A stretch of DNA of 64,000 bases from an uncultured virus (IMG/VR IMGVR_UViG_3300022602_000072) (lineage: Duplodnaviria > Heunggongvirae > Uroviricota > Caudoviricetes): the IMG/VR virus record IMGVR_UViG_3300022602_000072; one strand, given 5' to 3'. Numbering within the stretch: position 1 is the first letter of the stretch; each line of letters opens with the position of its first letter. The translations under genes were made by a program, and so were the position numbers. The notes under the pieces are model-generated. The model saw only the letters and a list, made by a program, of their open reading frames with translations. It did not search any database and was not told the origin of the DNA. This document shows positions 1-15,146 of this stretch, piece by piece.

Positions 1-1566
1 GCATCTATGTTGGGAGTAGGCGTAGGGTTTGATGACAAGGGTGCAGACAAGGACTTCACAATCTACGACTGCACAGAAGGAGACAACTATGTCATCTCAG
101 ATACCCGAGAAGGATGGGTTGAAAGTACAGCCGCCCTCATCAATAGCTACCTTAAGCCGGATACGAAGTGCCCTGTATTTGACTACTCAAAAATACGGCC
201 AGCAGGAGAGCTCATCAAAACCTTTGGTGGCACTGCGGCTGGACCCGATCCCCTTATCAAACTCCATGACCACATCCGCAAAATCTTTGGTGGACGGGCA
301 GGAGAAAAACTAACTCGCAGAGATATCGCAGACCTCGGTAACCTTATCGGAGTCTGCGTTGTCTCCGGAAACGTACGCCGTTCAGCTGAACTGCTGATCG
401 GACGTATTGATGACGAAGAGTTTATTAACCTTAAGAATTATGAGAAGTACCCAGAGCGTATGGGCCATGGCTGGATGTCCAACAACTCCGTTGAGGTATC
501 AGTAGGTCAAGACCTATCAGCAATCATTGAAGGTGTTGCCCGCAATGGTGAGCCTGGCGTTATCTGGATGGACACAACCCGTAAGTACGGCCGCCTAGCT
601 GATCCGGAGAACAATAAGGACTGGCGTGCGGCTGGATATAACCCGTGTGCTGAACAATCATTGGAATCAATGGAGTGCTGTACATTGGTAGAAACTTATA
701 TCGGTCGCCATGACAGTCTCGAGGATTTCAAGCGTACGCTGAAGTTCGCATACCTCTACGCTAAGACCGTTACTCTCATCCCTACCCACTGGGAAGAAAC
801 CAACGCCATCATGCAACGCAACCGCCGTATCGGAACATCAATCTCCGGTATCGCTAACTTTGCTGATATCAAGGGCCTGCCGCTGCTACGTACCTGGATG
901 GATGAAGGTTACGCTACGGTTGCTGCCTATGATAAGAGCTACTCTGAGTGGTTGGGTATTCGTGAGTCAATTAAGATGACTACAGTCAAGCCATCCGGAA
1001 CAGTTTCTATCCTGGCCGGAGAATCACCTGGAGTTCACTGGACACCAGGCGGAAAGTACTTCTTGCGTACTATTCGATTTGCTAATAGTGACCCAATGCT
1101 CCCATTGTTCAAAATGGCTAACTACCGTATTGAACCTGCCGCCTCAGACCCGGACGGCACTTCAGTTGTGTACTTCCCAATCAAGTCCTCTTCTATGCGT
1201 TCTGAGAAGGAAGTCTCTATCTATGAGAAGATGGCTATTGCGGCCACAGCTCAAAGGTACTGGTCAGATAACTCTGTCTCTGTGACAGTTTCGTTTGACC
1301 CTAAGACCGAAGCAGATGCAATCGGTACCGTGCTGCATATGTACGACGGTCAACTAAAGACCGTGTCATTCCTGGCTATGGATGATACGCTCTACCCCCA
1401 GATGCCTTACACTCAGGGTGAGGAGTCTGAATACGAAGAGGCCCGCATGACACACTTCCCAATTGATTTGAGTGGCGTGTACGCAGGTATGGCGTTTGAT
1501 GCAATTGGTGAGGCCTATTGCACCACAGACGCTTGTGAAGTAAAACTAATCAAAGATAATGCCTAG
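1..1566 (+). CDS. nrdJ: Class II (adenosylcobalamin-dependent) ribonucleotide reductase, 5'-truncated by window edge
   Basis: NPCAEQ catalytic loop, GNVRRSAE, TTVKPSGT and C-terminal CTTDAC cysteine pair typical of monomeric NrdJ/RTPR. Confidence 0.92.
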   Translation, partial: ASMLGVGVGFDDKGADKDFTIYDCTEGDNYVISDTREGWVESTAALINSYLKPDTKCPVFDYSKIRPAGELIKTFGGTAAGPDPLIKLHDHIRKIFGGRAGEKLTRRDIADLGNLIGVCVVSGNVRRSAELLIGRIDDEEFINLKNYEKYPERMGHGWMSNNSVEVSVGQDLSAIIEGVARNGEPGVIWMDTTRKYGRLADPENNKDWRAAGYNPCAEQSLESMECCTLVETYIGRHDSLEDFKRTLKFAYLYAKTVTLIPTHWEETNAIMQRNRRIGTSISGIANFADIKGLPLLRTWMDEGYATVAAYDKSYSEWLGIRESIKMTTVKPSGTVSILAGESPGVHWTPGGKYFLRTIRFANSDPMLPLFKMANYRIEPAASDPDGTSVVYFPIKSSSMRSEKEVSIYEKMAIAATAQRYWSDNSVSVTVSFDPKTEADAIGTVLHMYDGQLKTVSFLAMDDTLYPQMPYTQGEESEYEEARMTHFPIDLSGVYAGMAFDAIGEAYCTTDACEVKLIKDNA

Positions 1567-1576
1567 GGAGTAAGAC

Positions 1577-1711
1577 ATGTCAGACGATATTAACCCAGAC
1601 CTTTTCGATGAGGACTTCGAAGAGGATTTTGAAGATGGTTGGGAAGACTTTGACTTTGATGACGAAGACTTTGATACCTTTGAAGATGACCTATATACAG
1701 ACCCCGAATAA
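1577..1711 (+). CDS. 44-aa extremely acidic peptide (MSDDINPDLFDEDFEEDF...)
   Basis: Open frame ATG 1577 to TAA 1711 with GGGAG RBS, directly after nrdJ; not in ORF track (<60 aa). Confidence 0.7.
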   Translation: MSDDINPDLFDEDFEEDFEDGWEDFDFDDEDFDTFEDDLYTDPE

Positions 1712-1742
1712 AAGGGCATAGGTCGCCCCAACACAAACAATT

Positions 1743-1774
1743 GCCCCCAACTCAATGAAGAGCTGGGGGCTTTT
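1743..1774 (+). terminator. Intrinsic terminator at the convergence of + and - gene blocks
   Basis: GCCCCCA...TGGGGGC stem followed by TTTT. Confidence 0.7.
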
Positions 1775-1947
1775 GCTTGCCGTTATGCTTTTATTCCCTT
1801 ATTTCATCTAGAAGGTCTAGATACAGGTACAGGTCAAATACGGATTCTTCTATATCCCTAAGAGCCCTGTTGGTTTGAAACACCCACAATAGATTTGTTA
1901 TTATGAATGCTATAACTACTACTTGCCACCAGCCCATGTTGCTCTCC

Positions 1948-2157
1948 TTAGTCTGCTAGATGCATACCAGAGTTGTCGGTCAACTCATAGTATGTTGTAT
2001 CGGATACCTCTGTATCTTCATAGGCCTCAATCTCATCAGGATAAGTATCCCCAGAGATTAGACCTTCATAGATTTCTCTTGCATGGTCCGCATTATCTGC
2101 ATCAAAGATGATTGTACCGCTTCGATTAGAATCGAATTGGGCTCGGAATTTGGGCAT
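1948..2157 (-). CDS. Hypothetical acidic protein
   Basis: ORF; start chosen at MPKF with AAGGAG RBS. Confidence 0.65.
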   Translation of the reverse strand: MPKFRAQFDSNRSGTIIFDADNADHAREIYEGLISGDTYPDEIEAYEDTEVSDTTYYELTDNSGMHLAD

Positions 2158-2286
2158 CCTTATCTCCTTTGTATAGGCATTCACATTCTTCTGTTTCAAA
2201 TGTGCCCTCTTCATCAGAGAGCCAGCTAACAAGCCCAGTACCGTAGCACATGGTGCAGGTACGGGGCTTTATCGTCTCCATATCCA

Positions 2287-2577
2287 TTAGGCATCTACCT
2301 TATAGGTAAGTGAGCCGGCGATATGGGTAGGCTTTCCGGAACCGTGCATAGCCTTGACCTCCATCTTGATTGACTTGCGTGGAGTGTTGTCTAGCACCAC
2401 TTGCTTTAGATAACGCTTAGCTGCTGATGGGTTAGACCAAGCAGAGTGCGTATCCATGATGAAGGTTTGCTCACCTTCATTTTGGATAGTGATTGATAAC
2501 AGCCAAGCACCGCCTTTTTCTACAGCGGTATTCTTGGTTAGCTTTGCGTTTAGCGTTTGATTTAGCTTCTTAGCCAT
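2287..2577 (-). CDS. Hypothetical protein
   Basis: ORF with GGAGG RBS, tight packing. Confidence 0.7.
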   Translation of the reverse strand: MAKKLNQTLNAKLTKNTAVEKGGAWLLSITIQNEGEQTFIMDTHSAWSNPSAAKRYLKQVVLDNTPRKSIKMEVKAMHGSGKPTHIAGSLTYKVDA

Positions 2578-2585
2578 TTGCCCTC

Positions 2586-2819
2586 CTAGAGCCTTATATC
2601 TTTGGTAAACCCTACCTGCTTCAGGTCACGTAGGATATTGCGTCCCGCTCTGTGGTCCCCAAGACTTTGGGCACCAAAGAATACTGTCCGCTTTGTTTTA
2701 GGATTCACAACTTTGATGTGTTGCTTACCTGTTGAGGAGACTTGTAAACCTTCGGCCTCTAGTACAGATACTAGCTTCCGTATCTCCTTTGTTCTTATAT
2801 TTAGTTGTGCAAAGTACAT
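2586..2819 (-). CDS. HicA-like (dsRBD-fold) toxin/RNase
   Basis: 77 aa; pattern ...LEAEGLQV...GKQHIKV.NP...GDHRAGRNILRDLKQVGF resembles actinophage HicA-like proteins. Confidence 0.6.
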   Translation of the reverse strand: MYFAQLNIRTKEIRKLVSVLEAEGLQVSSTGKQHIKVVNPKTKRTVFFGAQSLGDHRAGRNILRDLKQVGFTKDIRL

Positions 2820-2834
2820 TACATCTCACTCTCC

Positions 2835-3035
2835 TTAATCTAGTACTTTTACTTCGGTTATATACGCTTCCTCGCCCGGTCTATTGAGCTCGGATACATT
2901 GACCCACTTGCCTAGATTGCGGTCGTATACTTTTAGGCACCACTCTCGGTTTGCGGCTATGCGTTGGTCATCTATGCGCCACTTCTTGATACTGACCTCA
3001 TAGGTGACCTGTACTTTATATGTGTCGTCATTCAT
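2835..3035 (-). CDS. Hypothetical protein
   Basis: ORF with RBS in packed minus-strand block. Confidence 0.6.
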   Translation of the reverse strand: MNDDTYKVQVTYEVSIKKWRIDDQRIAANREWCLKVYDRNLGKWVNVSELNRPGEEAYITEVKVLD

Positions 3036-3079
3036 TCATACCCTTTCTGATTCCAGTCTAGCCGATTTGTTTGTGTTGG

Positions 3080-3274
3080 TCAAACTTCCTCGCCAGACTC
3101 GTTATAGATGTCACCGACGTCTGTCCAGCACGCCATCTCATCTACTATCCAGAGATGCTTCTCATCATTGGCAGCACTTTCCTCTGCCTTTCCGATAGCT
3201 TCGTATTTAGACTCCGCCTCTACCCAATAATCATAGATAACGTGGTCATGCATAGTTACTCTGTATTTAGCCAT
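3080..3274 (-). CDS. Hypothetical acidic protein
   Basis: ORF with GGAGG RBS. Confidence 0.65.
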   Translation of the reverse strand: MAKYRVTMHDHVIYDYWVEAESKYEAIGKAEESAANDEKHLWIVDEMACWTDVGDIYNESGEEV

Positions 3275-3277
3275 TAT

Positions 3278-3547
3278 TTACACCTCCCAATCTTCATAGG
3301 TTGCTTGAACTGCATCATCAAGGTCTGCAATTAACAGGTCAATCTCATCAGGAGACCAATCTGCAACCATAGCCCTAGTTAAGTTAAGTTGCCATAGTAC
3401 TTCTCTACCTGGATTGGAACCTTCGTTACAACAAGGGCAGCCATTACCGCAACCACCGTAGTCTCTTGTGCCATCTGGCTTATCCTCAAGCACGATACTG
3501 CACTTGCATTCCTCGCACATAACCGGCATGTTATTCTTCCTCCCCAT
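3278..3547 (-). CDS. Hypothetical Cys-containing protein
   Basis: ORF; CEECKC and CGNGCPCC motifs. Confidence 0.55.
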   Translation of the reverse strand: MGRKNNMPVMCEECKCSIVLEDKPDGTRDYGGCGNGCPCCNEGSNPGREVLWQLNLTRAMVADWSPDEIDLLIADLDDAVQATYEDWEV

Positions 3548-3989
3548 TTGTGATTGGTAGTTCTGACATACAGTCTGCAGTTACTTTATCATCTAGTTGT
3601 TCACGCATAGTTGTTACGGTTTCTGGTGGTAACTTGGTATACATACGCTCTAATAGCTTAGCCAAAGAGTAATTGCTATTAACTTTAAGAGCATAGTCCA
3701 GCATGTTGACTGCGGCATCGATATTGCCACGCTCAAACTCAAACATAGAGTAGATTGTGACAAAGGGAACACCGTCTTGTTGAGTGGTGTGTACAGCCAT
3801 ATACTTTACAAATTCGATAGACTCTTCCATGGTAAACCTAGCTGGCATACCCATAACCCAGTCACGAACTTGTAGGTCATTATTGACTGCAAAGATTACC
3901 TTCTCAAGCCTCTCATCTTCAAGAGGCAAGACATTATCGATGCTCTCTTGGATAAGAGTTACAGCTTCCTTACGACTTGTTACTATCAT
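3531..3989 (-). CDS. DUF4192-like protein
   Basis: VRDW...G....A...LDYAL....NYSLAKLL...LPP pattern recalled from the actinobacterial DUF4192 C-terminus; AAGGAG RBS. Confidence 0.55.
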   Translation of the reverse strand: MIVTSRKEAVTLIQESIDNVLPLEDERLEKVIFAVNNDLQVRDWVMGMPARFTMEESIEFVKYMAVHTTQQDGVPFVTIYSMFEFERGNIDAAVNMLDYALKVNSNYSLAKLLERMYTKLPPETVTTMREQLDDKVTADCMSELPITNGEEE

Positions 3990-4444
3990 TCTGGCTCCTT
4001 TTTGGTTGTTCGGAATGTACCTTCTGGCGTAGGCCATTGATACGGTAGGTTATCATCCACCTCAAACGGATAATGCTCTGGTAGCTTACGCTTGAGGTTT
4101 GATTGGTGGCTTTTATGGAACTTCTCAGCCCCTAACCACCACGGCTTTCGTCTAGTGTATGGGTTCAGATTGAACCGTTTAACTAGCTCGATTACCTGTT
4201 GCTTGGTGTTATCAACATACCCACGCTTTACCCACTCATCGCAGATAGTCAGGGCATATTTTGCCAAGTGTGATTCGTGACCCCGCCACATTACAGCAGC
4301 GGGGTGGTTGCGCCATCCCACAGTTAGACCCAGGTTGGCCCTCAGAATCTGCAACGCTTCTACACGTTGCTTACCGAGTCTCCTATCGTCTAGGGATTGG
4401 GCTACTTGCTTGAAGTCTGCATAAGGCAGAAACGTATTTACCAT
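3986..4444 (-). CDS. Pyrimidine dimer DNA glycosylase / endonuclease V-like (MSMEG_6728 family)
   Basis: TFLPYADF, LDDRRLGKQRVEALQI, HPAAVMWRG, SHQSNL motifs. Confidence 0.85.
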   Translation of the reverse strand: MVNTFLPYADFKQVAQSLDDRRLGKQRVEALQILRANLGLTVGWRNHPAAVMWRGHESHLAKYALTICDEWVKRGYVDNTKQQVIELVKRFNLNPYTRRKPWWLGAEKFHKSHQSNLKRKLPEHYPFEVDDNLPYQWPTPEGTFRTTKKEPE

Positions 4445-4556
4445 GTGTCCTCCTCATCATCTCCAAAGTAACAGTCCCAGCAGGTAACTCTTTGACTGTG
4501 TACAACATATGAATCGTCTTGACCTAGCACCTCTTTACAGAGACTACATGTAATCA

Positions 4557-4718
4557 TTAGTCCTCCAATATCATTGGTATGAGGTCTTCTGCATGGTGTT
4601 TAATCAGCAGTTGACGTACGATTTCTTTGTTTGTGTTGAGCCTGTCCAGCTCCTCTTGCCTAAGCATTTCACTTAGCCACAGAGCTGGATTGGCATTACG
4701 TAGTTGCTCCTCGTTCAT
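4557..4718 (-). CDS. Hypothetical 53-aa protein
   Basis: Open frame MNEEQLRNA...MILED overlapping the upstream stop (ATGA). Confidence 0.55.
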   Translation of the reverse strand: MNEEQLRNANPALWLSEMLRQEELDRLNTNKEIVRQLLIKHHAEDLIPMILED

Positions 4719-4906
4719 GCAAGGGCGGCTAACGTAACGTTATTGTCTTGAGCCCACTCTTGTGCTGGAGTAATAGATTCGATGGTCAGGTTTGCACCAC
4801 CATCCGCTAGTTCTTCTGAGATATGAAGCAGGAACATCTGAGCTGATTCATAGTCATTGAACACTTCTATCAGTGTTTCAGTTAGGCTGTCATAGATTGT
4901 ATACAT
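4715..4906 (-). CDS. Hypothetical protein
   Basis: ORF translationally coupled to the vWA gene. Confidence 0.6.
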   Translation of the reverse strand: MYTIYDSLTETLIEVFNDYESAQMFLLHISEELADGGANLTIESITPAQEWAQDNNVTLAALA

Positions 4907-6732
4907 TATCGTCCTCGCTTTCTGATGGCACCCGTAACCACGGCTTTGGCAAACGGGAGTAAGTCGGCACCACTATTTACACGGGCATAGACCTCAGCAC
5001 CGTGGCGGAACGTGGCGTCTGTATAGTTGTAGCGTTCCTCATACCACTCTCTGTCTTTTTCTTCCATGATGAGAGTCATTGCTGTAAGCACGCCACGCTT
5101 GGCAATGCGAGCAATAATCTCATCGTTTGGGTTCTCATTGAAGACACCGTCAGTAATGATGAACAACATCTTGTTCTTCTTACGGGACGACATGAGTAGT
5201 TGTTCAGCCGCTAGTAGCGAGCTCTGTGGATTGGTACCACCGCTACCGTAGATGAACTTGTATTGCGTACGGTCAGCCGCTTGATTACGACGATAGGCTA
5301 CTTCAGTCTGGTCGTCGAATGCATAGACTGTAACGAGGCCATTGATTTGCTCAATACCACGCTTGATAGTCCAGCAGGCTATAGATGCTTGTAGGTCATT
5401 GCCACCATGCATTGAACCTGAACGGTCAACCAAGATGACGGCCTCGATATCTGCACCGTCTGTGCCCTCATCCCAACGGTCAAAGGCTTGGTCAATCTCA
5501 CAGCCTCTGATTGCTCGTTGGACATTGAGCTTACCGCTTGCTTCCTCCTTGTGCCATGCTGGCTCGCACTCGTCACGCAAGCGTTCTAGCTCACGTGCGA
5601 ACCTACGATAGGTAGCCATGCTGTCAGCCGGTACAGTTGTAAGGTCGAATCGACCAGCTTTGACGGAGTCATTGTGCTTACCGTCACCGCCGATGATTAC
5701 CTTTTGCTTTGTCTTGATATCGGATTGAACATCCTTACGAGACATGACTTCGTTGATAGTGTCTTGCAGTATTGCTTGAACACTATCTGGTATGCCACCA
5801 AGACTCTCGTGATGACCTGTTCCGGCTATTGGGTCACCGGGTACATAGTCTTTGCTTGTCTTGTCTGGCGCTGAGTTAGCGGCATCAAGAGCTTCTTGGA
5901 TTGTCTTGGGTGCAGATGGTGCTGGTTTGTTTGTGTTGGTTGATTCGGCTTTACCGACTCCACCACCACGCTTTGCGTCTTTCTCCTGTGCTTTGCCAGG
6001 TTCGGGACGACCTTTGGCTACAGGGTCACGACCCGTACAGCCATTCATACCCTTAGGCGGTTGAAAGCCTAGAGGCGCCAGCACTTCATCATTCCAGCGC
6101 TTGATTAGTTCTTGTGCCTTGGCATAGTCACGTGGGAATGCCAAGAGACGATACTCATCTACGATTTCGGCAATGACAGGGATAAGCTCGGGCTTTGCGA
6201 ACATATCTCTGAATGCCTCACGTACATCTAGTGGTAGATACCTACGACCACGCACCAGCATGTAGTTACCTACAGCATCGCTTGGTGTGCGGGCTAGCCA
6301 TCTAGCCACTGTTGCAGTTAGGAATGGTGCAATTGATGGATAACGACCCACGAGCAGAGTCTCGATACGCTGGTCCTCCAGCATATTGGCAGACTCCATG
6401 TAGCCATTCTCTACAACCCACTTCATGAACGTAGTGCCACGACGTGGAGTATAGAGATGATGAGCTAGCTCATGGAAGTTGAGGCCATTGACTTGCGCCA
6501 AAGCCTCAAGGTCGAAGTTATCAATCTCTTGCGAGTTGATATAGATAGCGGCACCGTCAGACCATGCAGGTGCTGGGCCATCATCCATCACGTGAACCAG
6601 AACTGGGTCACCAGTGATTACTCTGTCAGTCTGTTCATAGACACGACAGAGGGAGTTAAGCTGAACGGTACGTTCCTGTTCCTCTTCGGAACGAGATTGG
6701 TAATACCGTTCATCTAGGTTATCGTCATACAC
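4906..6732 (-). CDS. vWA-domain protein with N-terminal HExxH metallopeptidase-like domain (CobT-like MoxR partner)
   Basis: HELAH...LEDQRIE; MIDAS motif DRSGSM, GGT, ITDG. Confidence 0.85.
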   Translation of the reverse strand: MYDDNLDERYYQSRSEEEQERTVQLNSLCRVYEQTDRVITGDPVLVHVMDDGPAPAWSDGAAIYINSQEIDNFDLEALAQVNGLNFHELAHHLYTPRRGTTFMKWVVENGYMESANMLEDQRIETLLVGRYPSIAPFLTATVARWLARTPSDAVGNYMLVRGRRYLPLDVREAFRDMFAKPELIPVIAEIVDEYRLLAFPRDYAKAQELIKRWNDEVLAPLGFQPPKGMNGCTGRDPVAKGRPEPGKAQEKDAKRGGGVGKAESTNTNKPAPSAPKTIQEALDAANSAPDKTSKDYVPGDPIAGTGHHESLGGIPDSVQAILQDTINEVMSRKDVQSDIKTKQKVIIGGDGKHNDSVKAGRFDLTTVPADSMATYRRFARELERLRDECEPAWHKEEASGKLNVQRAIRGCEIDQAFDRWDEGTDGADIEAVILVDRSGSMHGGNDLQASIACWTIKRGIEQINGLVTVYAFDDQTEVAYRRNQAADRTQYKFIYGSGGTNPQSSLLAAEQLLMSSRKKNKMLFIITDGVFNENPNDEIIARIAKRGVLTAMTLIMEEKDREWYEERYNYTDATFRHGAEVYARVNSGADLLPFAKAVVTGAIRKRGR

Positions 6733-6743
6733 TAACTACCTCC

Positions 6744-8141
6744 TTAGACGTTGGCTTTGGCTTGTGATACCCACGCTGTTAGTTCCTCAGCGAGAGTTAG
6801 TTCAGTCTCTGCGGTATCGTTGTTGATTTCTGGTGCGATACCGAAGTCTTCCCTGATGTTGTACTCGTGTGTCTGGAAGACCAAGCGAACTGATGCTTGC
6901 TCCTCAGCACCGAAGTGAGCGATGAAGTTCTCAACCGCAAACTCATAGCCAAGCTTGTTGACGAAGTCAACGAACTCGATAAGCATATTGGTAGAGATAG
7001 GTGTGTCGTATTGACCCTTAGCGGCTTCGGTACGAAGTTGCTTAACGAGTGTACGAAGAGACTTGCTGTCAACCAGCTTCTCCTCAACCGAGTCATCGTA
7101 ATCCCACGCCAACTGAATGTCGAAGCGGTTACGCATAGCGAAGTTGAGAGGCGTGGTGCCTACATAGTCTGGGTTCATAGTCGCAAAGACTGTGACGTCG
7201 GGATGAGCTTCGATAGTCTCACCCATGTGGTCAAGCAACGTGATGGTACGACGACCATCAGTTAAGGGATACAGAGTCGTATAAATCTTGGGGCTGATGA
7301 AGTTCATCTCATCCAAGAGTAGTACGCCACCGTTACGCACAACGTCAGTTACTGGACCATCAATCCAGCCATAACCTCCGTTGCCGTCTGGGATAAAGCC
7401 ACCGAACAACTGTCGGGACTCCATCGATGCATTACCTGATACTGTAGCCATACGCAAGCCACGTGAGGCGGCCCACGCTTCTACAGCGGTTGTCTTACCA
7501 GGACCGGTAGGGCCATAGATAAGAACGTTGATATGGTCAGCACGAGCACGGTCAAAGATATCGAAGTCCTCGACACCATAGACCTTGCGATGGATATATC
7601 GCTCAGCTAAGCGCATAGGTGGCACTGTAGCTAGTGAGACATTGAACGCAGGCGCACTAGCTTTTGTTGATTGCTGTGGCATGTCGTCCAGTGTTTGTGT
7701 TGGAACGGGAACAACTAGCGGGCTAGTTGTTGCTCGGTTATCTATCACGTATTCCTCCAGTTGGTCATCTCCCATCTCGACTTGAGAATAGAAGTTTGTT
7801 ACGATGCCTATCACATCAGCGTTAGCCTCAGCAATAGACTTGTTGTGTGCACTAACTGCTTTGGTAGTCAGGACTGGAGAATAGCCCTTACTATCAATTG
7901 CCCTCATATCAGCGGCAGTAACATACACACCAACAGGCTTGCGAGTTGTGTTCTCGCTGTCTTTAATCTCACCCGATAGTGTGTCTAGGTTTGTTGGCTC
8001 CCACTTATTGTGAGTGCCCTTAGTCCCATCAGTCACACGTGAGTAGAGATTGACACCACCCTTGTATGGAACTACCAATACCTGACGGCGATGGTTTCCC
8101 ATACTAGGCTCGTATGATTCAATGAACATTGAGATGTCCAT
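6744..8141 (-). CDS. MoxR/CobS/CbbQ-type AAA+ ATPase
   Basis: Walker A GPTGPGKT, WIDGP, Walker B LLLDE, ATMNP sensor, NRF arginine finger. Confidence 0.9.
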   Translation of the reverse strand: MDISMFIESYEPSMGNHRRQVLVVPYKGGVNLYSRVTDGTKGTHNKWEPTNLDTLSGEIKDSENTTRKPVGVYVTAADMRAIDSKGYSPVLTTKAVSAHNKSIAEANADVIGIVTNFYSQVEMGDDQLEEYVIDNRATTSPLVVPVPTQTLDDMPQQSTKASAPAFNVSLATVPPMRLAERYIHRKVYGVEDFDIFDRARADHINVLIYGPTGPGKTTAVEAWAASRGLRMATVSGNASMESRQLFGGFIPDGNGGYGWIDGPVTDVVRNGGVLLLDEMNFISPKIYTTLYPLTDGRRTITLLDHMGETIEAHPDVTVFATMNPDYVGTTPLNFAMRNRFDIQLAWDYDDSVEEKLVDSKSLRTLVKQLRTEAAKGQYDTPISTNMLIEFVDFVNKLGYEFAVENFIAHFGAEEQASVRLVFQTHEYNIREDFGIAPEINNDTAETELTLAEELTAWVSQAKANV

Positions 8142-8154
8142 GCATTACCTTTCT

Positions 8155-8415
8155 CTAGTCGTCTTCGTCTACTATGCGCTTAAGGTTATCTTGAATGCGA
8201 TTCTCCATAACCGTGGCGACAGCAAACGCTAATTGTTTTTCCTTTGGCCATTCTGTAATCAACTGAATCAGGAACCCGCCCTGCTCAGCCTTATCCATAA
8301 TCGTAGCAAGTTGATAGCAAGCAAAGTCAAAGAACTCTTCTCGCTCGTGCTCGGGCATGGAATTCAACATATCCATTTCATCATCGAAATGGTCATCGCC
8401 ACATTTGTGACACAT
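8155..8415 (-). CDS. Hypothetical protein
   Basis: ORF with GAAAGG RBS before MCHKC. Confidence 0.6.
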   Translation of the reverse strand: MCHKCGDDHFDDEMDMLNSMPEHEREEFFDFACYQLATIMDKAEQGGFLIQLITEWPKEKQLAFAVATVMENRIQDNLKRIVDEDD

Positions 8416-8616
8416 TTTGTTTCCTTTCTCAGAGATAATTGGTTGGCTTACCTCTGGCGCCACTCATAGACATTCGGTATGCCCGCACCTTTGGCTCAAC
8501 TGTCGATACATTGCTGATACACAGCAATGCACTAGTCCTATTGCGTACTCGGGTCTTGGGGGACGGATTCTGCATGTGTGGAAGTAGGCTTAGCCAACCA
8601 ATCAGTATCTATCTAA

Positions 8617-8940
8617 CTATTCGTCAGATAGGCTCTCTCGGTCGTAATCCATTTCATTGGACATATCGCCATATAGGATTTCGTTGAGTCCACGTCTAAA
8701 ACGGTTTAGAACAACACGTGGACGGCTGTTCCTCCGGTGAGTTGCATCTACGCAACCTCTGTAATCGGCATGATAGAACTCAAACATTTTAAACCTCGTG
8801 TTGAACACTTGAGTGTATTGTTGAGTCTTACCGATTGCTTGACCACAACTACCGCAACTTTGGTAGTCGTAGTGCTGTGGCTGTATGAGTGGTCTAGCAG
8901 TTGTACTGTGCGCTGCTTTATACCCTTCGTATTTAGCCAT
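8617..8940 (-). CDS. Hypothetical protein, CxxC zinc-binding candidate
   Basis: CGSCGQAI...YH...GC; RBS. Confidence 0.6.
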   Translation of the reverse strand: MAKYEGYKAAHSTTARPLIQPQHYDYQSCGSCGQAIGKTQQYTQVFNTRFKMFEFYHADYRGCVDATHRRNSRPRVVLNRFRRGLNEILYGDMSNEMDYDRESLSDE

Positions 8941-8971
8941 GGTTCCCTTTCTGCTTGGTTGTTTGTGTTGG

Positions 8972-9454
8972 TTACGACAGCAGGGATGCTGACATAGCCG
9001 TGCTACTAGTTAGTAGCTCTTTGAACGTGCTTGCTGACATGCCGTTGATTAGGCCCTCAGCAATGTTTCTGATTAGCGAGCTTCTGGTAGTTGGGGAAAG
9101 ACGCAGAATAATAGCTTTCGCTAAGTCTTCTTCTCCAAAAGCATATGCTAATGAGGCACCATACTCACACCACATGGTTAGTGATGTATCTTCATCAGAC
9201 GTTGCCCTGATAGCCTGAACGAAAACATTCAGTGTTTGTATGGCATCTAAGTTACTTGGGTAAGTAACAATGCCGTGCAACACAGCATCTCTGAAGCTAC
9301 TATCTTTAGCAGTATTGAGCTCCAATGTAATTGGTAGCCTGTTTGATAGCAGGATAGCGATGTGTTCTTTAACGTCGGATATCTTATCTACAGTCGATGT
9401 AAGCGATGTAGTTTTACCGTCGTAAGCCACCATATCTTTATAGTTCATTAACAT
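8972..9454 (-). CDS. Second DUF4192-like protein (divergent paralogue of 3531-3989)
   Basis: FRDAVL...ASLAYAFGE.DLA...SSLIRNIAEGLINGM pattern. Confidence 0.4.
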   Translation of the reverse strand: MLMNYKDMVAYDGKTTSLTSTVDKISDVKEHIAILLSNRLPITLELNTAKDSSFRDAVLHGIVTYPSNLDAIQTLNVFVQAIRATSDEDTSLTMWCEYGASLAYAFGEEDLAKAIILRLSPTTRSSLIRNIAEGLINGMSASTFKELLTSSTAMSASLLS

Positions 9455-10172
9455 GGTCTGCTAGCATCCTTTCTAGTTGGGTTAGTGGTTGTTTATATAT
9501 GTTGCCATTCTGTACTCTGATAGGGGAACCGTCCCAGAGCACAGAAATCTTACGCTCACCATATAGGCGTTGCTTTGTACCGTTGCAGTAATAGCATGTT
9601 TGACCACGCTTAAGGTTATGTCCTGTGGCATCACCATGTATACATGGGATTCCATGCCAATTTCTCCAGGGGGCAAGATTTGTTGCATCAGGATGTGTAG
9701 GGCAGGTGATACTGCCGTCAGGCAAGGTGATTACGTTGCCACACATTTGTGGGTTGCACCACGAGTCCATCAATCCTGATGATGAGCATTGCCTACAGCC
9801 CTGCAACTTGCCTGGCTTAATAGGTGCATCACGCTCAGTGATATAGAACTTACCTTTACGACGGTTAACTTGAATGCCAGCGTACTTCCAGATTGTATAT
9901 CGTATGCTTTGGCTATCTAAGCAGTTGAATGAGCTATTCCAATAGGTAGTTATTAAGCCACCTTTGAGTGTCATAGTACTATCTGGATGAATAGTAATAA
10001 GTGGGTGCCTTTTGGTCCAAGGATTGACTATCTGGATATCACCAGAGCGTGACCACTTATTAGCGTATTGAACACGGTTACGCTGACCGTCATAGAGCGT
10101 ACGCTCCCATTTGTTACGACCACGGGCTATGTATGATTGCCACACGTCGTAATCGTGTACTTCCCAACTCAT
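9438..10172 (-). CDS. Hypothetical protein with CxxCxxxG zinc-finger-like motifs
   Basis: CRQCSSSG and CYYCNGT motifs. Confidence 0.65.
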   Translation of the reverse strand: MSWEVHDYDVWQSYIARGRNKWERTLYDGQRNRVQYANKWSRSGDIQIVNPWTKRHPLITIHPDSTMTLKGGLITTYWNSSFNCLDSQSIRYTIWKYAGIQVNRRKGKFYITERDAPIKPGKLQGCRQCSSSGLMDSWCNPQMCGNVITLPDGSITCPTHPDATNLAPWRNWHGIPCIHGDATGHNLKRGQTCYYCNGTKQRLYGERKISVLWDGSPIRVQNGNIYKQPLTQLERMLADHVNEL

Positions 10173-10465
10173 TGTGCCTCCATTGTCTCGAATAAGCCTA
10201 CTGGCTCTGGGTCTGACATGTCAACATACGTTAGTTCTATCAACTGCTCACGTTGGCGCTCTGTTTGTGTTGGAGCTTCTGTCCACCATGAGGATGTGAG
10301 AGATATCACAGACGACTTAGGCTTGAGCATTTGTAGGGCTAAGCCATAGCCATCAAGCAGTCCGTTAGTATATGCACGAGCATTCTGATGCTCTTCGAAG
10401 TGCAGGTCATCTTGAGCCTCAATGATTGCTTGCTCAAGTACCTTGACTATCTTCTTCCGCTTCAT
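10169..10465 (-). CDS. Hypothetical protein
   Basis: ORF with 4-nt overlaps on both sides. Confidence 0.65.
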   Translation of the reverse strand: MKRKKIVKVLEQAIIEAQDDLHFEEHQNARAYTNGLLDGYGLALQMLKPKSSVISLTSSWWTEAPTQTERQREQLIELTYVDMSDPEPVGLFETMEAQ

Positions 10466-10734
10466 ACTAATGACTTACCAAATACAGACGTGGCTTGAGG
10501 GTTGTATACCTTGCCAGTCTTCCAATGTGGGATTGACTTGTGGTCAGCACGACCACCCTTAGCTTTCCAAGCCTCACGCTTTTCATAGCTCTTGATAGTA
10601 CGACCATTGACATGGGTGAAGTTTGTCTTCTCCATCTGCGCTGGTCCTGGGTTTTGCTTGCGAGCCTTGCCGTTTTTACGGTCACCCGCTGTGTTTATCT
10701 TTGGAGCTGGTGCTCCGCCTTTACCTTTTGCCAT
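10462..10734 (-). CDS. Hypothetical basic protein
   Basis: ORF with GAAAGGGG RBS. Confidence 0.7.
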   Translation of the reverse strand: MAKGKGGAPAPKINTAGDRKNGKARKQNPGPAQMEKTNFTHVNGRTIKSYEKREAWKAKGGRADHKSIPHWKTGKVYNPQATSVFGKSLV

Positions 10735-10754
10735 TGTCTGGCCCCTTTCGGAGG

Positions 10755-11006
10755 TTAGTTGATTGTCTCTACACTTGTGTGCAGAGTTGTAATGCCGTCA
10801 TCCCATAGGGCTGACGCTTCCTTGTAGCGAAGTCCTTTGTAAGCAACTGCATCTACAATGAATTCCAGTCGTGCGAGAGAGCGTTCAAAGACTCCTTGAA
10901 CAGTCTCATCAATCAGTAATATGCGTCCCTGCTTAAGGGCTTGTTCTTGTACCTCAGCAATAGTTAGCTCAGGTGAGAGGCGCATTTCAAGATATACATC
11001 GTCCAT
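10755..11006 (-). CDS. Hypothetical protein
   Basis: ORF coupled to upstream stop (TAATG). Confidence 0.65.
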   Translation of the reverse strand: MDDVYLEMRLSPELTIAEVQEQALKQGRILLIDETVQGVFERSLARLEFIVDAVAYKGLRYKEASALWDDGITTLHTSVETIN

Positions 11007-11257
11007 TATTTATGCCAATCTACTCGATAGGTTGTTCCCCATCTGCGATAGGGTGCATCTATGATGCGATATAACTTCCACCACCTATAACATGCTTTAG
11101 ATATAGGTAGGCTATGCTGGTCAGCAAAGTCTTCGTGCTCTATTGCTTTGTGCAATGGGTATGAGGACATATGATTGCAAGCATTAGCAAACCAACGTAA
11201 GGGGAGAATGTTGGTCTTGTGTTCCGGTATGCCCGGAAACAGTTCAAAGAAACTCAC
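11006..11257 (-). CDS. Hypothetical protein
   Basis: GTG start with GAAAGGAG RBS; the longer track start overlaps structured non-coding sequence. Confidence 0.6.
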   Translation of the reverse strand: MSFFELFPGIPEHKTNILPLRWFANACNHMSSYPLHKAIEHEDFADQHSLPISKACYRWWKLYRIIDAPYRRWGTTYRVDWHK

Positions 11258-11288
11258 GGTTACTCCTTTCTGCTGTGATTGTTTATTT

Positions 11289-11318
11289 TGGGCAGTTTTA
11301 ATAGACATGCCCAGGTCT
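11289..11318 (-). ncRNA. Pseudoknot motif copy D
   Basis: AGAC-CUGGGCAU-GUCU-AU-UAAAAC-UGCCCA; compensatory changes in both stems relative to other copies. Confidence 0.7.
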
Positions 11319-11390
11319 TCTAGTGTTGAGGGGAAAAGGGGGAATTTCGTGCCTCGGCACTCCCATACACCCACAGGTACCTCACTAGCG

Positions 11391-11463
11391 TGCCCTCGGC
11401 TGGAATTGAACCAGCAACACCCACCTTAGGACGATGGTGTTCTATCCATTGAACTACGAGGGC
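11391..11463 (-). tRNA. tRNA-Arg (CCU)
   Basis: Cloverleaf: GCCCTCG/CGAGGGC acceptor, GTTC/GAAC D-stem, anticodon loop GTCCTAA, T-loop TTCAATT; no encoded CCA. Confidence 0.88.
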
Positions 11464-11466
11464 AAG

Positions 11467-11500
11467 TGAGCAGTTTTACCTCAGGTCATACTCAGGACCA
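11467..11500 (-). ncRNA. Pseudoknot motif copy C
   Basis: UGGUC-CUGAGUAU-GACC-UGAGG-UAAAAC-UGCUCA, ending 3 nt before the tRNA-Arg 5' end. Confidence 0.7.
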
Positions 11501-11507
11501 AATCTAT

Positions 11508-11795
11508 CTATGACAATAGACCGTGCAGTTCTTCTGAAGAAAGGATGCGGTCAGTTGGTTGAGGCCAATTAACCCAGCCCTCTGGCTGTTCCTGTCCTTC
11601 TTCAAGCCATGGGGAAATACGAACTGCGTAAGGAACCTCCATTAGTCCTACTTCTGGATTTCCTGTGCCATTTTTGAATGCTTCTAGCGTAGCCTTGTAG
11701 ATATCGTCTACATTATTGGCCGCTTCTACATCCATAATGACTTGTGTAGCAACCATCATGGACACACGATGTGTGTATGTCGTTTGCTTAGTCAT
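11508..11795 (-). CDS. Hypothetical protein
   Basis: ORF with AAAGGGA RBS. Confidence 0.7.
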   Translation of the reverse strand: MTKQTTYTHRVSMMVATQVIMDVEAANNVDDIYKATLEAFKNGTGNPEVGLMEVPYAVRISPWLEEGQEQPEGWVNWPQPTDRILSSEELHGLLS

Positions 11796-11836
11796 TTGTA
11801 TCCCTTTCTGTATGTTTTGCGGATTGTTTGTGGTAA

Positions 11837-11864
11837 TGAGCAGTTTATTGTCATACTCAGGACA
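11837..11864 (-). ncRNA. Pseudoknot motif copy B
   Basis: UGUC-CUGAGUAU-GACA-A-UAAAC-UGCUCA. Confidence 0.7.
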
Positions 11865-11868
11865 CGGA

Positions 11869-12096
11869 TTAACCTCTAGCTAAAAGAACCTCAACATCAG
11901 TACCGATAGAGGCAAAGTATGCCAATGAGGGTACGTTGTGCTCTCCGGATATAGGTGCTAGTACTAGCCCATTACACGCTAGAGTCTCAAGCAGTTCACT
12001 GACACCCAAATCAAACCCATTTGATTCTAGGTCATCTATAATTGTGGATGCCATTTCTTGTTGTGCTTTGATACTTGCCTTTAGTTCATCTGTCAT
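11869..12096 (-). CDS. Hypothetical protein
   Basis: ORF with AAGGAG RBS. Confidence 0.7.
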   Translation of the reverse strand: MTDELKASIKAQQEMASTIIDDLESNGFDLGVSELLETLACNGLVLAPISGEHNVPSLAYFASIGTDVEVLLARG

Positions 12097-12121
12097 GGTT
12101 TCTCCTTTTTCGTTGCATGGA

Positions 12122-12155
12122 TGAGCAGTTTTACCTCAGGTCATGCTCAGGACCA
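12122..12155 (-). ncRNA. Pseudoknot motif copy A
   Basis: UGGUC-CUGAGCAU-GACC-UGAGG-UAAAAC-UGCUCA. Confidence 0.7.
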
Positions 12156-12209
12156 ACCACATGTGGACTCTCGTCTCTTAGACCACTTAATGTGTCTCTA
12201 TTAAATTGT

Positions 12210-12644
12210 TTAGCGGATGAACAATGCCCATTGAGTTGATGTATTAATCTTGAACTCAACATCAGTTGAGCCCTCAATTAATGCAATAGCGTTTTGGACT
12301 TGTTCGTAGTCGCTGATTTCTCCACAACCTGCATCTTTATGTTCAGGTTTGCGACTATAACTAGGACGCTCACCTAAGGTCTCAGAAGCTAACTTTATGT
12401 CAAAGCTATACGATAAATCAAAACGGTTGTTATAAACTCCTACATCCGTTTCGTATGCTTTAGCCACATTCTTCTTAGCCCATGCGATTGCCTTTTTATC
12501 CCAAGCATCTTGACGCCTATCAACAGTCGCATAGTTCTTTTCCCATTCGACTATCTCATCGTCCATACGCTTGAGAGTTGCCTGCAACTTTTTGAGCAAG
12601 TCTTTCTTAGCCCAAGTGGTTGCTATGACTTTGGTATTAGCCAT
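12210..12644 (-). CDS. Hypothetical protein
   Basis: Start re-assigned to MANTKV with AAGGAGG RBS. Confidence 0.7.
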   Translation of the reverse strand: MANTKVIATTWAKKDLLKKLQATLKRMDDEIVEWEKNYATVDRRQDAWDKKAIAWAKKNVAKAYETDVGVYNNRFDLSYSFDIKLASETLGERPSYSRKPEHKDAGCGEISDYEQVQNAIALIEGSTDVEFKINTSTQWALFIR

Positions 12645-13062
12645 TACTGGCCCTCCTTTTTGCGTGGTTTTGTTTGTGTTGGTGCATGCATGGTTTATAC
12701 TCCCCATGCGCTGTGAGTTGGTTGTGCATACTATCTCTATACATGTACTCGATAAGGACAATACTGTTCCGAGCCCACGAAGTCTCGGGGAGAGTAAAGG
12801 GTCCACACCCTGGGTTCGATTCTCCTACTAGCGATGGCAAGCCAGTCGTTCGGAGTCTTAGCACCGGTCTTTCCTAACCCAACCTTTCGTGCGAGTCTGT
12901 ATGACTAGGGTTACTGTGTAACCCGAAGCCAGCACAGCACAGAGATTATTCATCGGGTGTGCTGTGGAGGCATCGCATCACACAGGTAAAAGGTGGGCGG
13001 GGGAGCGTACCCTCACACGCTCAACCCCGCCCGCTTGGTGGAGTCGGCACCAAGCATCCTCA

Positions 13063-13395
13063 CTAAATACTATTTTGCTCTCGTCTATAAGCTCGTTCTT
13101 CACGTTCCCTATCCATACGCACTCTATCTACATTAGAGTGATGAGTACAGAGTTGTGACTCACCTCTTGCTTCTCTGCGACAGCGTGTGCCTTTGTCTGT
13201 TATATGTCTACAAGACATAAGATGTGTGTGGCAGTAAAGGCATCGAATAACTATCCACATGGTATCTGTCTTGATTTGTTGTTCCTTACAGACACCATTA
13301 CAACCATCTGCCCAACCTTGATGCCTATCTTCATAGTAATAGGTTGCTGTGTATTGGTGTGTGCCTGGTTCTACGGGCCACAGTATGTTTCCCAT
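13063..13395 (-). CDS. Hypothetical Cys/His-rich (zinc-binding) protein
   Basis: CNGVC, CLYC, C..T..G.RC...LCTHH motifs. Confidence 0.55.
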   Translation of the reverse strand: MGNILWPVEPGTHQYTATYYYEDRHQGWADGCNGVCKEQQIKTDTMWIVIRCLYCHTHLMSCRHITDKGTRCRREARGESQLCTHHSNVDRVRMDREREERAYRREQNSI

Positions 13396-13397
13396 AG

Positions 13398-13649
13398 TTA
13401 TTCAACCACCGTACTGCCAGCACCAAAGAATCTGATTACCTCAGATGATGCTTCGATAAAGGCGCATGTATTTGCCATTAAATCTTCGGGATGGTGCAAG
13501 CCTTCACTTGGCCATGTGTTATCAAGATAGGCTGATAAGCCTGATGTGATTTTCTCAACGAACTCATCCTTGGTCATGAAGCCTAATGACCGTAGGCGTA
13601 GCTCATCGGGTGTGTATTTTGGGTTATCTGATTTAGAGCCCATTACCAT
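13398..13649 (-). CDS. Hypothetical protein
   Basis: ORF with GAAAGGA RBS. Confidence 0.65.
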   Translation of the reverse strand: MVMGSKSDNPKYTPDELRLRSLGFMTKDEFVEKITSGLSAYLDNTWPSEGLHHPEDLMANTCAFIEASSEVIRFFGAGSTVVE

Positions 13650-13921
13650 GTCCTTTCATCATAGGCAGCTAGTGCCTGAGCCAATTCGGGGAAGTATTTG
13701 CCACTTTGGCATTGTCCTGTTTCATGTACATAGGTCCATACGACATATGGGTCATGTGGGCTACGTGGTGCAAGGCACAGGATGATATCCGTACCGGGCG
13801 ATGATTGTTTGTGTTGGAGCACAACTGCGTCAGTTGATACACCACCGTCACCCTGTAGTGCAATGCCGGGGGCGATAGTTACGAACTCATGCTCATCATG
13901 CATCGTAATTAAACCTATCAA
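13643..13921 (-). CDS. Hypothetical protein
   Basis: ORF in packed block; start uncertain. Confidence 0.55.
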   Translation of the reverse strand: MIGLITMHDEHEFVTIAPGIALQGDGGVSTDAVVLQHKQSSPGTDIILCLAPRSPHDPYVVWTYVHETGQCQSGKYFPELAQALAAYDERTW

Positions 13922-14032
13922 AGTTGATTGTCAAGTCCCAGAACAACAGGTTAAACCAGAGTTCCTTGTAAAACCATGAGAATGATAGCCCCAAAGCCGC
14001 ACACCCATTCTTACGTCGCAACAGTATGTTCA

Positions 14033-14269
14033 TTATCCCTCCATCAGGTCTATGTCTACCACGGGCGTGGTAGTACGATACTTGCGTTTGCCATTCAATG
14101 ACCACTCTATGATGAGAGGTCTGCCTATTTCAGCATGTGCCACTTTGATATACGGTGTCCATTCCTCATCACGGGGTAACCGCATGGGGGATGTGTCGGG
14201 GATGCGTATGAAGCGGCGGTTGTTTGTGTTGAACACATATGTACTGTGCTCAGTTATTACCTTGTACAT
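14033..14269 (-). CDS. Hypothetical protein
   Basis: ORF; T..STY and RTTTPVV motifs. Confidence 0.6.
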   Translation of the reverse strand: MYKVITEHSTYVFNTNNRRFIRIPDTSPMRLPRDEEWTPYIKVAHAEIGRPLIIEWSLNGKRKYRTTTPVVDIDLMEG

Positions 14270-14385
14270 ACTTTTCCATTATCTCGGCCATAACTTTAGC
14301 CATAATAATCTCAGCCTGAATCTTGGCTAAGTTACTCTGTATCACATCAAGCTGTTTGGATATCTCTATGATGCGAGCTGTCTCT

Positions 14386-14715
14386 TCATCCTGCATGTTT
14401 CATTACCTCCATTACTTTATCTAACGGCCAGCAAGGGATGCCCTCACCGGTAGAGCCTCTGTCCTCAGGGCTTGTGCCACCTTGGATAGAGTGTCGGTCA
14501 TCTCGCTTGACTGCATCCGTGAGGCATTGCAATTTAACGGGACAACCTTGACAGATAGCTTTTGCTTTGTTTGCTTTCGCAAGACGCTGTTGTCCTCGTT
14601 GTAAATGGTCGTAGTAGAAAAGGTTAGTGTCCATTCCACGACATGAGGCGTTGTCTTGCCATGATAAGTCTTCCCACTTAGGGAAAGTGAGTATGACTGT
14701 TCTCTCATCATTCAT
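14386..14715 (-). CDS. whiB: WhiB-family Fe-S transcription regulator
   Basis: WQDNASC...AKAICQGCPVKLQC four-Cys pattern and SIQGG (variant of the GIWGG turn); AAGGAG RBS. Confidence 0.85.
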   Translation of the reverse strand: MNDERTVILTFPKWEDLSWQDNASCRGMDTNLFYYDHLQRGQQRLAKANKAKAICQGCPVKLQCLTDAVKRDDRHSIQGGTSPEDRGSTGEGIPCWPLDKVMEVMKHAG

Positions 14716-15146
14716 CTCCTTCCTCCCTGAAATCCCAATCTTCTTGGTCACTTTCATACTGCTTGTTAATGATGGTTAGGCTAAGCCAGCCTACCAGCAT
14801 GACTCCGATAAACCAAAGCCACATGGTGTGACTCCTTTCTGTTGAGGGTTTGCTTGGTTGTTTAGCGTGGGTTCTTGTAGCGCCACACAGGTATAGCGAA
14901 GATAACCTTGCCCTTAAGGACAAGCTCAATCTCCATAGTCATGTACGCTTCCTTGTTGGCAGGCGTATGGACTACATATGTACGGTGTAGACCCGACTTC
15001 AGGTCTAGTTCATCAAGGTAGAACATCGGCTTGTAGCCTCTCTTATAGTAGGTAAGAGATACACAGGATTACCTTTACGTAGGCACGCTACGACCTGTGT
15101 ATCCCCCATCAACTACAAGTTCAGCGGGGAAAAATTGGGCGGGGAC

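Follow-up and report, generated by a model that had tools for sequence, protein, structure and literature searches.

The 64,000-nucleotide stretch analysed here (the window; IMG/VR record IMGVR_UViG_3300022602_000072) is part of a myovirus-like phage of about 100 kb, with terminase, portal, major head, sheath, tube and baseplate genes, and its left end carries the subject of this report, a short oriented word, the 11-mer CAACACAAACA, that recurs along one block of genes. The phage is probably virulent, and the presence of two WhiB genes suggests that its host is an actinobacterium. The block in question is a leftward, presumably early arm that encodes a WhiB protein, a MoxR/CobS-like AAA+ ATPase, a VWA/CobT-like protein, a pyrimidine-dimer glycosylase (Pyr_excise), a tRNA-Arg and many small open reading frames (ORFs); rightward of 17.4 kb all genes lie on the plus strand. 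Outside the arm, almost all genes of the complete relative G003 are co-directional, among them the structural genes, a DnaB-like helicase, a DnaG-type primase, PolA, RecA, a second WhiB, the lysis genes and nrdJ. The genome therefore consists of two units, an arm of 12–15 kb and a unit of about 85 kb, which have one divergence point and share one converging terminator.

The window contains ten exact copies of the word, nine on the minus strand between 3068 and 14231 and one, hereafter the flipped copy, on the plus strand (1729–1739), compared with a mean of 0.10 and a maximum of 2 in 100 dinucleotide-preserving shuffles of the window. When one mismatch is tolerated there are still ten matches, every one exact, so the copies do not belong to a fuzzy family, and neither strand of positions 14232–64000 (49.8 kb) holds a copy. 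According to ORF maps and family searches, each copy reads on the strand of the local ORFs. The copies are preceded by a pyrimidine at position −1 and mostly followed by A at position +11 (Y-CAACACAAACA-A), which gives a non-palindromic word of 11–13 nt made of A and C only. Successive minus-strand copies are separated by 415, 1135, 2409, 1302, 1268, 1764, 1300 and 1560 bp.

The original prediction, made by a model from the letters alone, had described most of this correctly: ten copies of the 11-mer, each on the locally transcribed strand, none in the rightward arm, some lying 1 nt after a stop codon (3068, 8960) and others within genes in all three frames. Its positions also hold, except that some were set 1 too low because the trailing A of a 12–13-mer was counted. 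The partial copy that it placed near 11824 does exist on the minus strand, at 11825–11835 inside the longest gap, and carries two mismatches (TACCACAAACA), which makes a function for this degenerate site doubtful. The plus-strand copy said to stand just after nrdJ is not the direct neighbour of that gene, as an acidic ORF of 44 residues lies in between (Table 1).

Table 1. Features of the left part of the window (positions in the window; ORF lengths in amino acids, aa).
Feature	Position	Strand	Remarks
3' end of long rightward unit	7..1711	+	nrdJ (7-1566) and 44-aa acidic ORF (1577-1711)
Flipped copy	1729..1739	+	sense for the long rightward unit; between stop codon of its last ORF (1709-1711) and terminator hairpin
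Terminator hairpin	1743..1770		bidirectional, intrinsic; minus-strand U-rich tail is the complement of the word
Leftward arm (presumed early)	1791..17052	-	roughly 35 ORFs, most of them small; no other large block is so oriented
HicA-like ORF	2586..2819	-	77 aa; between last arm copy and flipped copy
Word copy 9	3068..3078	-	last in arm; intergenic, 1 nt past a stop codon
Word copy 8	4628..4638	-	within 53-aa ORF
Word copy 7	5928..5938	-	within CobT/VWA-like gene, indel-rich linker
Word copy 6	7692..7702	-	within CobS/MoxR-like AAA gene, variable linker
Word copy 5	8960..8970	-	intergenic: stop codon, 1 nt, word, about 20 nt including ribosome-binding site, start codon
Cys/His-containing protein	9438..10172	-	244 aa
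Word copy 4	10262..10272	-	within conserved 98-aa ORF at relative position of about 0.65; slot retained in many relatives
tRNA-Arg	11390..11463		
Word copy 3	12671..12681	-	start region of 198-aa ORF; then Shine-Dalgarno-like AAGGAGG
Word copy 2	13806..13816	-	within 92-aa ORF; 415 bp from copy 1
Word copy 1	14221..14231	-	first in arm; outside long ORFs by gene calls
WhiB-like gene	14386..14757	-	just upstream of first word copy in the window
First arm ORF	16534..17052	-	172 aa, helical

The word is a real element under selection at the nucleotide level. In the CobS-like gene it is read as CCA ACA CAA ACA within a variable linker with indels on its flanks, and it is identical in 21 of 21 such genes (17 groups at 95% nucleotide identity). 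A single codon is retained in only 15 of the 211 columns with an invariant residue in these genes, and four of the 15 are the consecutive codons of the word, which stays exact even where the identity of the CobS-like protein falls to 52–53%. The CobT-like gene carries the word in a hypervariable linker, with a different reading frame in three loci (L011, L016, L017). Since its synonymous sites are invariant in all of the CobS-like genes and its frame differs among the CobT-like genes, the word is, on this comparative evidence, a cis-signal under selection rather than a side effect of the encoded proteins, and the earlier contention that protein sequence does not explain the copies holds at the synonymous sites of the in-gene copies.

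To follow the array beyond the window, 57 same-family IMG/VR loci were collected via the CobS-like protein (41–84% identity), together with eight loci of unrelated phages that carry a distant AAA protein. Of the family loci, 54 of 57 carry the exact word on the gene strand, and of the eight unrelated loci none does; of the other three family loci, two have transition variants and one is a distant relative with a high content of guanine plus cytosine (GC), which may use another word. Relatives have 5–13 copies, and in whole relatives (93–105 kb) the cluster lies in one arm of 10–14 kb. The nearest database record, G001 (27 kb), contains neither the arm nor the word. Confinement to the early arm, as originally proposed, is thus nearly true of the relatives, which have 0–4 further copies elsewhere, two of them at terminators, and the extra copies that lie in the long unit are sense for that unit. 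Across 21 arms, 169 copies are co-oriented with the genes, and each of the 20 reversed copies is the flipped copy behind nrdJ. The slots of the word partly turn over and the gene order shifts between genomes, yet the array remains. In addition, at least 124 IMG/VR stretches match a 14-base version of the word, and among the matches listed these are mostly single and scattered.

Single-mismatch variants within the arms follow the same strand, with 57 in sense versus two in antisense orientation; the commonest are C6T (24), A11C (10) and A2G (9), and the transversions C4A and C6A occur as well. Some lineages have changed the word as a whole. L048/G007 has no canonical copy and instead seven CRACRYAAACA sites (type CRACGTAAACA) about 1.4 kb apart, L055 and L056 use CAACATAAACA, the flipped copy included, and L053/G008 has three copies of CGACACAAACA, again with the flipped copy among them, alongside two canonical ones. 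The most distant member, G012 (L061, G012:C1:7249-20103; CobS-like protein 41% identical, 64% GC), lacks the canonical word; its arm strand has ten matches to CCTCCCCGAGG at up to one mismatch and its opposite strand has one, against two per strand for a control pattern. G012 may have the same system with a different word. The variants change together within lineages, as a dedicated reader would lead one to expect, and the shifts fit a reader that changes together with its sites. A variant strain in one DNA run has G>T at 13813, inside copy 2, which yields a C4A variant; this copy has the shortest gap (415 bp) and may be dispensable.

The copies are also evenly spaced. In the window and the first 20 relatives, near-identical genomes included, the gaps (n = 148) have a mean of 1280 bp and a coefficient of variation (CV) of 0.32. 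When the generalised word is used and the flipped copy is counted, spacing is more even than random placement (P<0.05) in 46 non-redundant loci out of 48, the exceptions being L031 and L035; the median CV is 0.265. About half of the copies are intergenic and about half lie in genes. Among 336 sites with non-identical context, 133 have the end of an ORF no more than 60 nt upstream, and in 64 of these the stop codon ends 1–2 nt before the 11-mer. Intergenic copies usually precede the next start codon by 11–36 nt, with the ribosome-binding site in between, and the conserved mid-gene copies lie in genes of 1.4–1.8 kb, about 1 kb from the next start. From the sequences, this looks like a rule resembling "no more than ~1.8 kb without a copy", which seems to be satisfied cheaply, in the very short gaps between genes wherever these allow it and, in long genes, in protein linkers that tolerate it.

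The most constant copy is the flipped one, and it is tied to the terminator on which the two units converge. It stands 3 nt before the hairpin, which is the strongest terminator-like site on the minus strand within the first 19 kb and whose extended fold on the arm strand reaches −37.5 kcal/mol (z-score −5.4). A sense word lies within 700 nt beyond nrdJ in 49 of the 51 loci that hold this gene, and 48 loci have a hairpin of −12 kcal/mol or lower within 45 nt after the flipped word. Furthermore, five loci (L022, L045, L060, L063, L082) have a second site in the long unit with the order stop codon, word, terminator hairpin, and at both of these terminator places the word lies 3–20 nt 5' of the hairpin. 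By analogy, this position suggests that the word sits where termination-modulating signals sit.

The flank of the word is asymmetric. Positions +11 to +20 are 35–37% C and 10–15% T, compared with 21.5% C and 24% T in the background, and this C-rich, T-poor 3' flank is common to 169 sites inside long ORFs and 154 other sites, with ordinary composition upstream. The aligned flanks contain no conserved −35 or −10-like element at any distance from the word. Folding predictions give the word a mean unpaired probability of 0.75, versus 0.41 for control 11-mers, part of which is automatic for a word of A and C only, and the 40 nt upstream of it are predicted to fold slightly better than controls.

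The arm is present in 24 public runs from 24 studies, including 13 RNA libraries. These runs were available as assembled contigs, which cannot reveal partial effects or the ends of molecules, and three RNA runs (metatranscriptomes) and one DNA run (X5) were mapped. Transcription of the arm is suggested by an RNA contig depth that is uneven (3–57) where DNA depth in run X5 is flat, at about 15–18 on the arm and on its flanks. In two of the three metatranscriptomes the depth peaks at 54–57 over 16571–17157, around the first arm ORF, versus 3–15 elsewhere in the first 18 kb; the 3' border of this peak coincides with a strain-hypervariable stretch (16547–16578). RNA contigs span eight of the nine arm copies (3068, 4628, 5928, 7692, 8960, 10262, 12671 and 13806), each in at least one run, and the contig ends listed match no arm copy. 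Depth rises about 3.5-fold near copy 3068, and the other depth steps lie away from copies.

At the converging terminator each of the three RNA runs breaks off within the flipped copy, at 1732, and restarts at 1776–1820, and the DNA run is uninterrupted there. As the hairpin drops out on both sides, the stop is best explained by poor capture of a structured 3' end, and as a sign of an RNA end within the flipped copy it is at most a weak hint. All three RNA runs also have a contig of raised depth with near-identical ends, from 11523/11524 to 12950–12959, which suggests an internal transcript that starts in the intergenic region near 12.96 kb and ends before the tRNA-Arg, with no word copy linked to it. 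The possibility that the arm is a collapsed long terminal repeat was rejected, because the X5 contig depth over the arm is similar to that of its flanks and not doubled.

The reading that we tentatively prefer is that the word YCAACACAAACAA, together with a C-rich, T-poor tail of about 10 nt, would be a strand-specific cis-signal read during transcription, be it in the nascent RNA or on the non-template DNA strand while this is exposed. Its reader would be a dedicated sequence-specific factor, encoded by the phage or by the host, and along the leftward arm this factor would have to engage the elongating complex afresh at least once in about 1.8 kb. Such a factor would control elongation or termination, so that RNA polymerase is either kept processive against polarity or Rho-type termination or arrested on cue. 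A further copy stands immediately ahead of the terminator of the opposite 85-kb unit. Three features favour single-strand reading in the course of transcription: the strict sense orientation, which extends to the opposite unit, the one-sided tail and the placement upstream of terminators. The reading during transcription, the protein nature of the reader and the direction of its effect are inferences. That the word acts on transcription or on transcripts in some way is the wider claim, and we consider it probable; the narrower one, a word that re-engages an elongation or termination factor, is a real but tentative possibility.

Lambda nut/boxA (read by NusB-S10), HK022 put and the RfaH ops element are likewise linear, strand-specific words of about 12 nt that act in nascent RNA or on the non-template strand, and boxA is repeated in the leader and spacer of rRNA operons. 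They share with the present word the sense-only orientation and the position upstream of terminators. They differ in that they occur once or twice per operon, whereas the word here returns every ~1.3 kb and has no sequence likeness to boxA or ops, and in that no NusG-, N- or Q-like reader is detected here.

The search for a reader covered proteins as well as RNA. Families of N, Q, NusB-S10 and RfaH/NusG paralogues were not found among 41 proteins of the window and 57 of G003, many ORFs having no family, and no PHROG annotated as repressor is found among 67 window ORFs, 34 of them in the arm. Among five whole relatives, sigma-70 region 2 (PF04542) and tyrosine integrase are each found in none, with working controls, and T7-like polymerase (PF00940) is found in none in a search that had no positive control. 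Profile searches with three arm families against PDB sequences yielded nothing beyond spurious coiled-coil matches. Of the readers originally put forward, WhiB is not always upstream of the first word site in the relatives, and the ORF at 16534 gave no match to a nucleic-acid-binding fold.

The most widespread uncharacterised arm protein is the 244-residue protein, which is present in 54 of 58 loci, the window included. Cys and His residues are invariant in it, a CxxCxGxG motif of DnaJ type is present, and it is usually encoded close upstream of the pair of MoxR/CobS-like AAA and VWA genes. In its AlphaFold model (predicted local distance difference test, pLDDT, 88.7) the best structural match (Z 3.9) is to a short stretch of an unrelated chain, and the Cys-rich part shows a weak likeness to the DnaJ cysteine-rich domain (Z of about 3); an association of the protein with the adjacent AAA and VWA pair is more likely. 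Another candidate, the HicA-like ORF, which has a shadow ORF on the opposite strand, matches HicA_toxin with E 3e-4, below the Pfam cut-off, and also phrog_2089. It has a tblastn match in 42 of the 57 loci (36–76% identity) and was rejected as reader since the other 15 word-bearing loci have none; some of these are cut short before the region, and L031, L035, L050–L053 and L058 reach nrdJ and carry the word.

An antisense RNA partner encoded by the phage was also rejected. The window holds no second complement of the word within one mismatch, and none recurs in five whole relatives; the flipped copy fails in this role in G008, where two of five arm sites mismatch it, and once in G009. A tolerance restricted to transitions, as wobble pairing would give, is not clean either, in view of C4A and C6A. 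The lack of such a partner in these sequences points to a protein reader.

Several results weigh against a signal read during transcription. At the word, the RNA contigs of the three runs show neither read-through nor pausing, cleavage or starts, and none of them crosses the terminator beside the flipped copy. No strong internal intrinsic terminator that would have to be overridden is predicted in the arm. Pfam and PHROGs detect no repressor, NusG-like or RNA-binding family among 34 arm ORFs, the 244-residue zinc-finger protein has no match to a nucleic-acid-binding fold (best Z 3.9 in the wide VIA-align search), and Foldseek, with a best value of E 0.3 over the two models, finds no fold match for the helical first arm ORF (AlphaFold pLDDT 75.3). 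The processive antitermination signals known so far work once, or at most twice, in an operon and are not periodic, the predicted accessibility is partly automatic in an A/C-only word, and DNA nick sites that avoid the template strand would give the same sense-strand bias.

A more specific version is a periodic reload or licensing system, in which an operon is tiled with an exact word of 11–13 nt and the reader re-engages the transcription complex or the transcript every ~1.8 kb at least. The word would then be forced into protein linkers, one copy would be coupled to the terminator of the converging 85-kb unit, more distant relatives would use another word, as G012 with CCTCCCCGAGG, and the system would be distinct from stoperators, nut/ops sites and promoters. 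We regard this version as speculative, a shade less probable than the general one. The original proposal, a phage factor acting on periodic sites to license, sustain or shut off transcription, is supported in part, as regards the sites, which are selected, always sense and co-vary within lineages; its factor and its three directions keep the status of proposals, and no result supports its alternative of pacing DNA entry.

A roadblock of the stoperator type is a rather doubtful alternative. A phage protein would bind the asymmetric double-stranded DNA word as a monomer and halt RNA polymerase from one side, and the arm would be shut off after the early phase. According to PMC9283540, the stoperators and operators of cluster A mycobacteriophages (L5 gp71, TipsytheTRex repressor) are asymmetric, multi-copy words of about 13 bp whose orientation is tied to transcription and whose function is abolished by reversal, with short intergenic sites, lineage-specific variants and actinobacterial phages as carriers. 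The word here is similar in being 11–13 bp long, always sense and about half intergenic, in its lineage-specific variants, which suggest that reader and sites change together, and in the actinobacterial host inferred from the two WhiB genes. It differs in that its evenly spaced sites are restricted to one 12-kb arm plus one or two terminator-linked copies and are not genome-wide, and in that about half of them lie in genes under synonymous constraint and have a compositional 3' tail. No copy, even with one mismatch, is present at the divergent promoter region (17.05–17.41 kb), which leaves the arm without an operator, and, where a cluster A system would bring an immunity repressor (HTH plus stoperator domain) and a temperate life style, no repressor family is found among the 34 arm ORFs and no tyrosine integrase in the five relatives of this probably virulent 100-kb myovirus. 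The number of copies (10; 5–13 in relatives) is below that of L5 (PMC9283540), more than 20 copies being typical of a cluster A system. Finally, the even spacing, the 3' tail and the universally kept pre-terminator copy have no role in a roadblock.

Strand-specific DNA sites are unlikely. The word might mark nicks that spare the template, polar fork barriers that guard the inverted block, with the flipped copy closing the trap, or Chi-like sites that face a DNA end. The arm is the only large inverted block in an otherwise one-direction genome, which confounds strand with the direction of transcription. Arm copies and flipped copy together point towards 1740–3067, as in a fork trap or as Chi sites would on either side of a break, and the phage encodes its own DnaB-like helicase, DnaG-type primase, PolA and RecA. 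Chi, KOPS, Tus-Ter and the DUS/USS uptake sequences (about 1 per kb) are short oriented words whose polarity flips at a defined point, and DUS/USS, with a density similar to that of the word here, also occur in genes in all frames and paired at terminators. These systems are genome-wide and determined by the host, whereas the present word is restricted to a phage arm and follows the direction of transcription. The nick sites of T5-, phiKMV- and tf-like virulent phages are likewise consensus words of 9–19 nt on one DNA strand at several places, for which, to our knowledge, no periodicity has been described. Against DNA sites stand the extra copies in the long unit, which are also sense-oriented and at terminators, and the C-rich, T-poor flank and maximum-gap spacing, which are unexpected for fork barriers. 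The similar X5 depth over arm and flanks does not indicate a collapsed terminal repeat, and Pfam finds no nickase or Tus-like family among 98 proteins of the window and G003, many ORFs having no family.

Decay or processing of messenger RNA is less likely again. A sequence-specific ribonuclease activity would cut at the word, reduce the polycistronic 12-kb early RNA to pieces of about 1.3 kb and sever protective 3' hairpins. Sense-only copies that are predicted to be single-stranded and have a U/G-poor flank would suit such an enzyme, as would an even spacing that minimises the longest fragment and the positions just 5' of the long-unit terminator hairpins and between stop codon and ribosome-binding site; the arm also encodes the HicA-like ORF, of an mRNA interferase family, and the RNA contig ends at 1732 give their weak hint. 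Eight of the nine arm copies are nevertheless spanned unbroken by RNA contigs, the end at 1732 is mirrored by the dropout across the hairpin, the phage provides no complement that could serve as guide RNA, and the HicA-like match is sub-threshold, with no tblastn counterpart in 15 loci. Furthermore, we know of no protein ribonuclease with a specificity of 11–13 nt.

Promoters or activator boxes for middle or delayed-early transcription, dependent for example on WhiB or another phage factor, are highly improbable: many copies lie 11–36 nt before start codons, RNA depth rises near copy 3068 and a WhiB gene precedes the first copy in the window, but there is no −10/−35-like signal at a fixed distance and the flank is T-poor where a −10 element belongs, conserved copies sit mid-gene with some 1 kb left to the next start, transcripts begun at the flipped copy would run directly into a terminator, the five relatives yield neither sigma-70 region 2 nor, in the search without positive control, a T7-like polymerase, the other RNA depth steps miss the copies, and WhiB is not always upstream of the first site.

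Repeated words have been described in other virulent phages with no role assigned. T1-like phages (TLS) have oriented intergenic direct repeats (PMC11447400), and the Nostoc cyanophage N-1 has a repeated 11-bp motif between genes (PMC4916379). Like the word here, they are repeated words that lie between genes of virulent phages; they are intergenic only and are not reported to be evenly spaced or embedded in genes (PMC11447400, PMC4916379), and the N-1 motifs, unlike the present word, are not consistently co-oriented with genes (PMC4916379). Searches with the 11-mer and with the term "stoperator", judged by the titles and abstract openings listed, found no description of the word or the array, and the term "motif" is absent from the COBRA paper, which deals with lake phages that encode whiB. 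Oriented regulatory words of phages are already known as a class, and the word and array reported here are new to the literature as searched.

Some observations concern the surroundings of the array. The 44-residue ORF, the last gene of the long unit, is extremely acidic and rich in D, E and F, and a comparable ORF starts past the nrdJ stop in most relatives that have sequence beyond it; from its composition one might guess at a DNA-mimic-like make-up. In the word-free start of the arm, a 32-nt stretch (a small hairpin and a tail) is duplicated at 15652–15673 and 15879–15900, 227 bp apart, and the two small ORFs beside it may be paralogues. A megablast of window positions 1–20000 against the phage GenBank collection returned nothing but a 69-bp tRNA-like match. 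L078 (JBDNFI010000028.1, 106 kb), from a Cyclobacteriaceae metagenome bin, encodes an nrdJ 77% identical to that of the window and is, by this likeness, probably a misbinned phage genome of the same clade.

The clade is widespread in lakes, where its hosts are abundant actinobacteria that are hard to culture, and the word provides a simple metagenome marker for these phages and for their presumed early arm. An exact word that is kept across divergent genomes and pushed into coding sequence indicates a strong, unexplained control mechanism. Its reader, once identified, would be a new regulator of elongation or termination by actinobacterial RNA polymerase, an RNA or DNA enzyme specific for 11–13 nt, or a new polar DNA barrier. 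If periodic re-engagement is true, the word array could turn out to be a categorically new kind of phage gene control.

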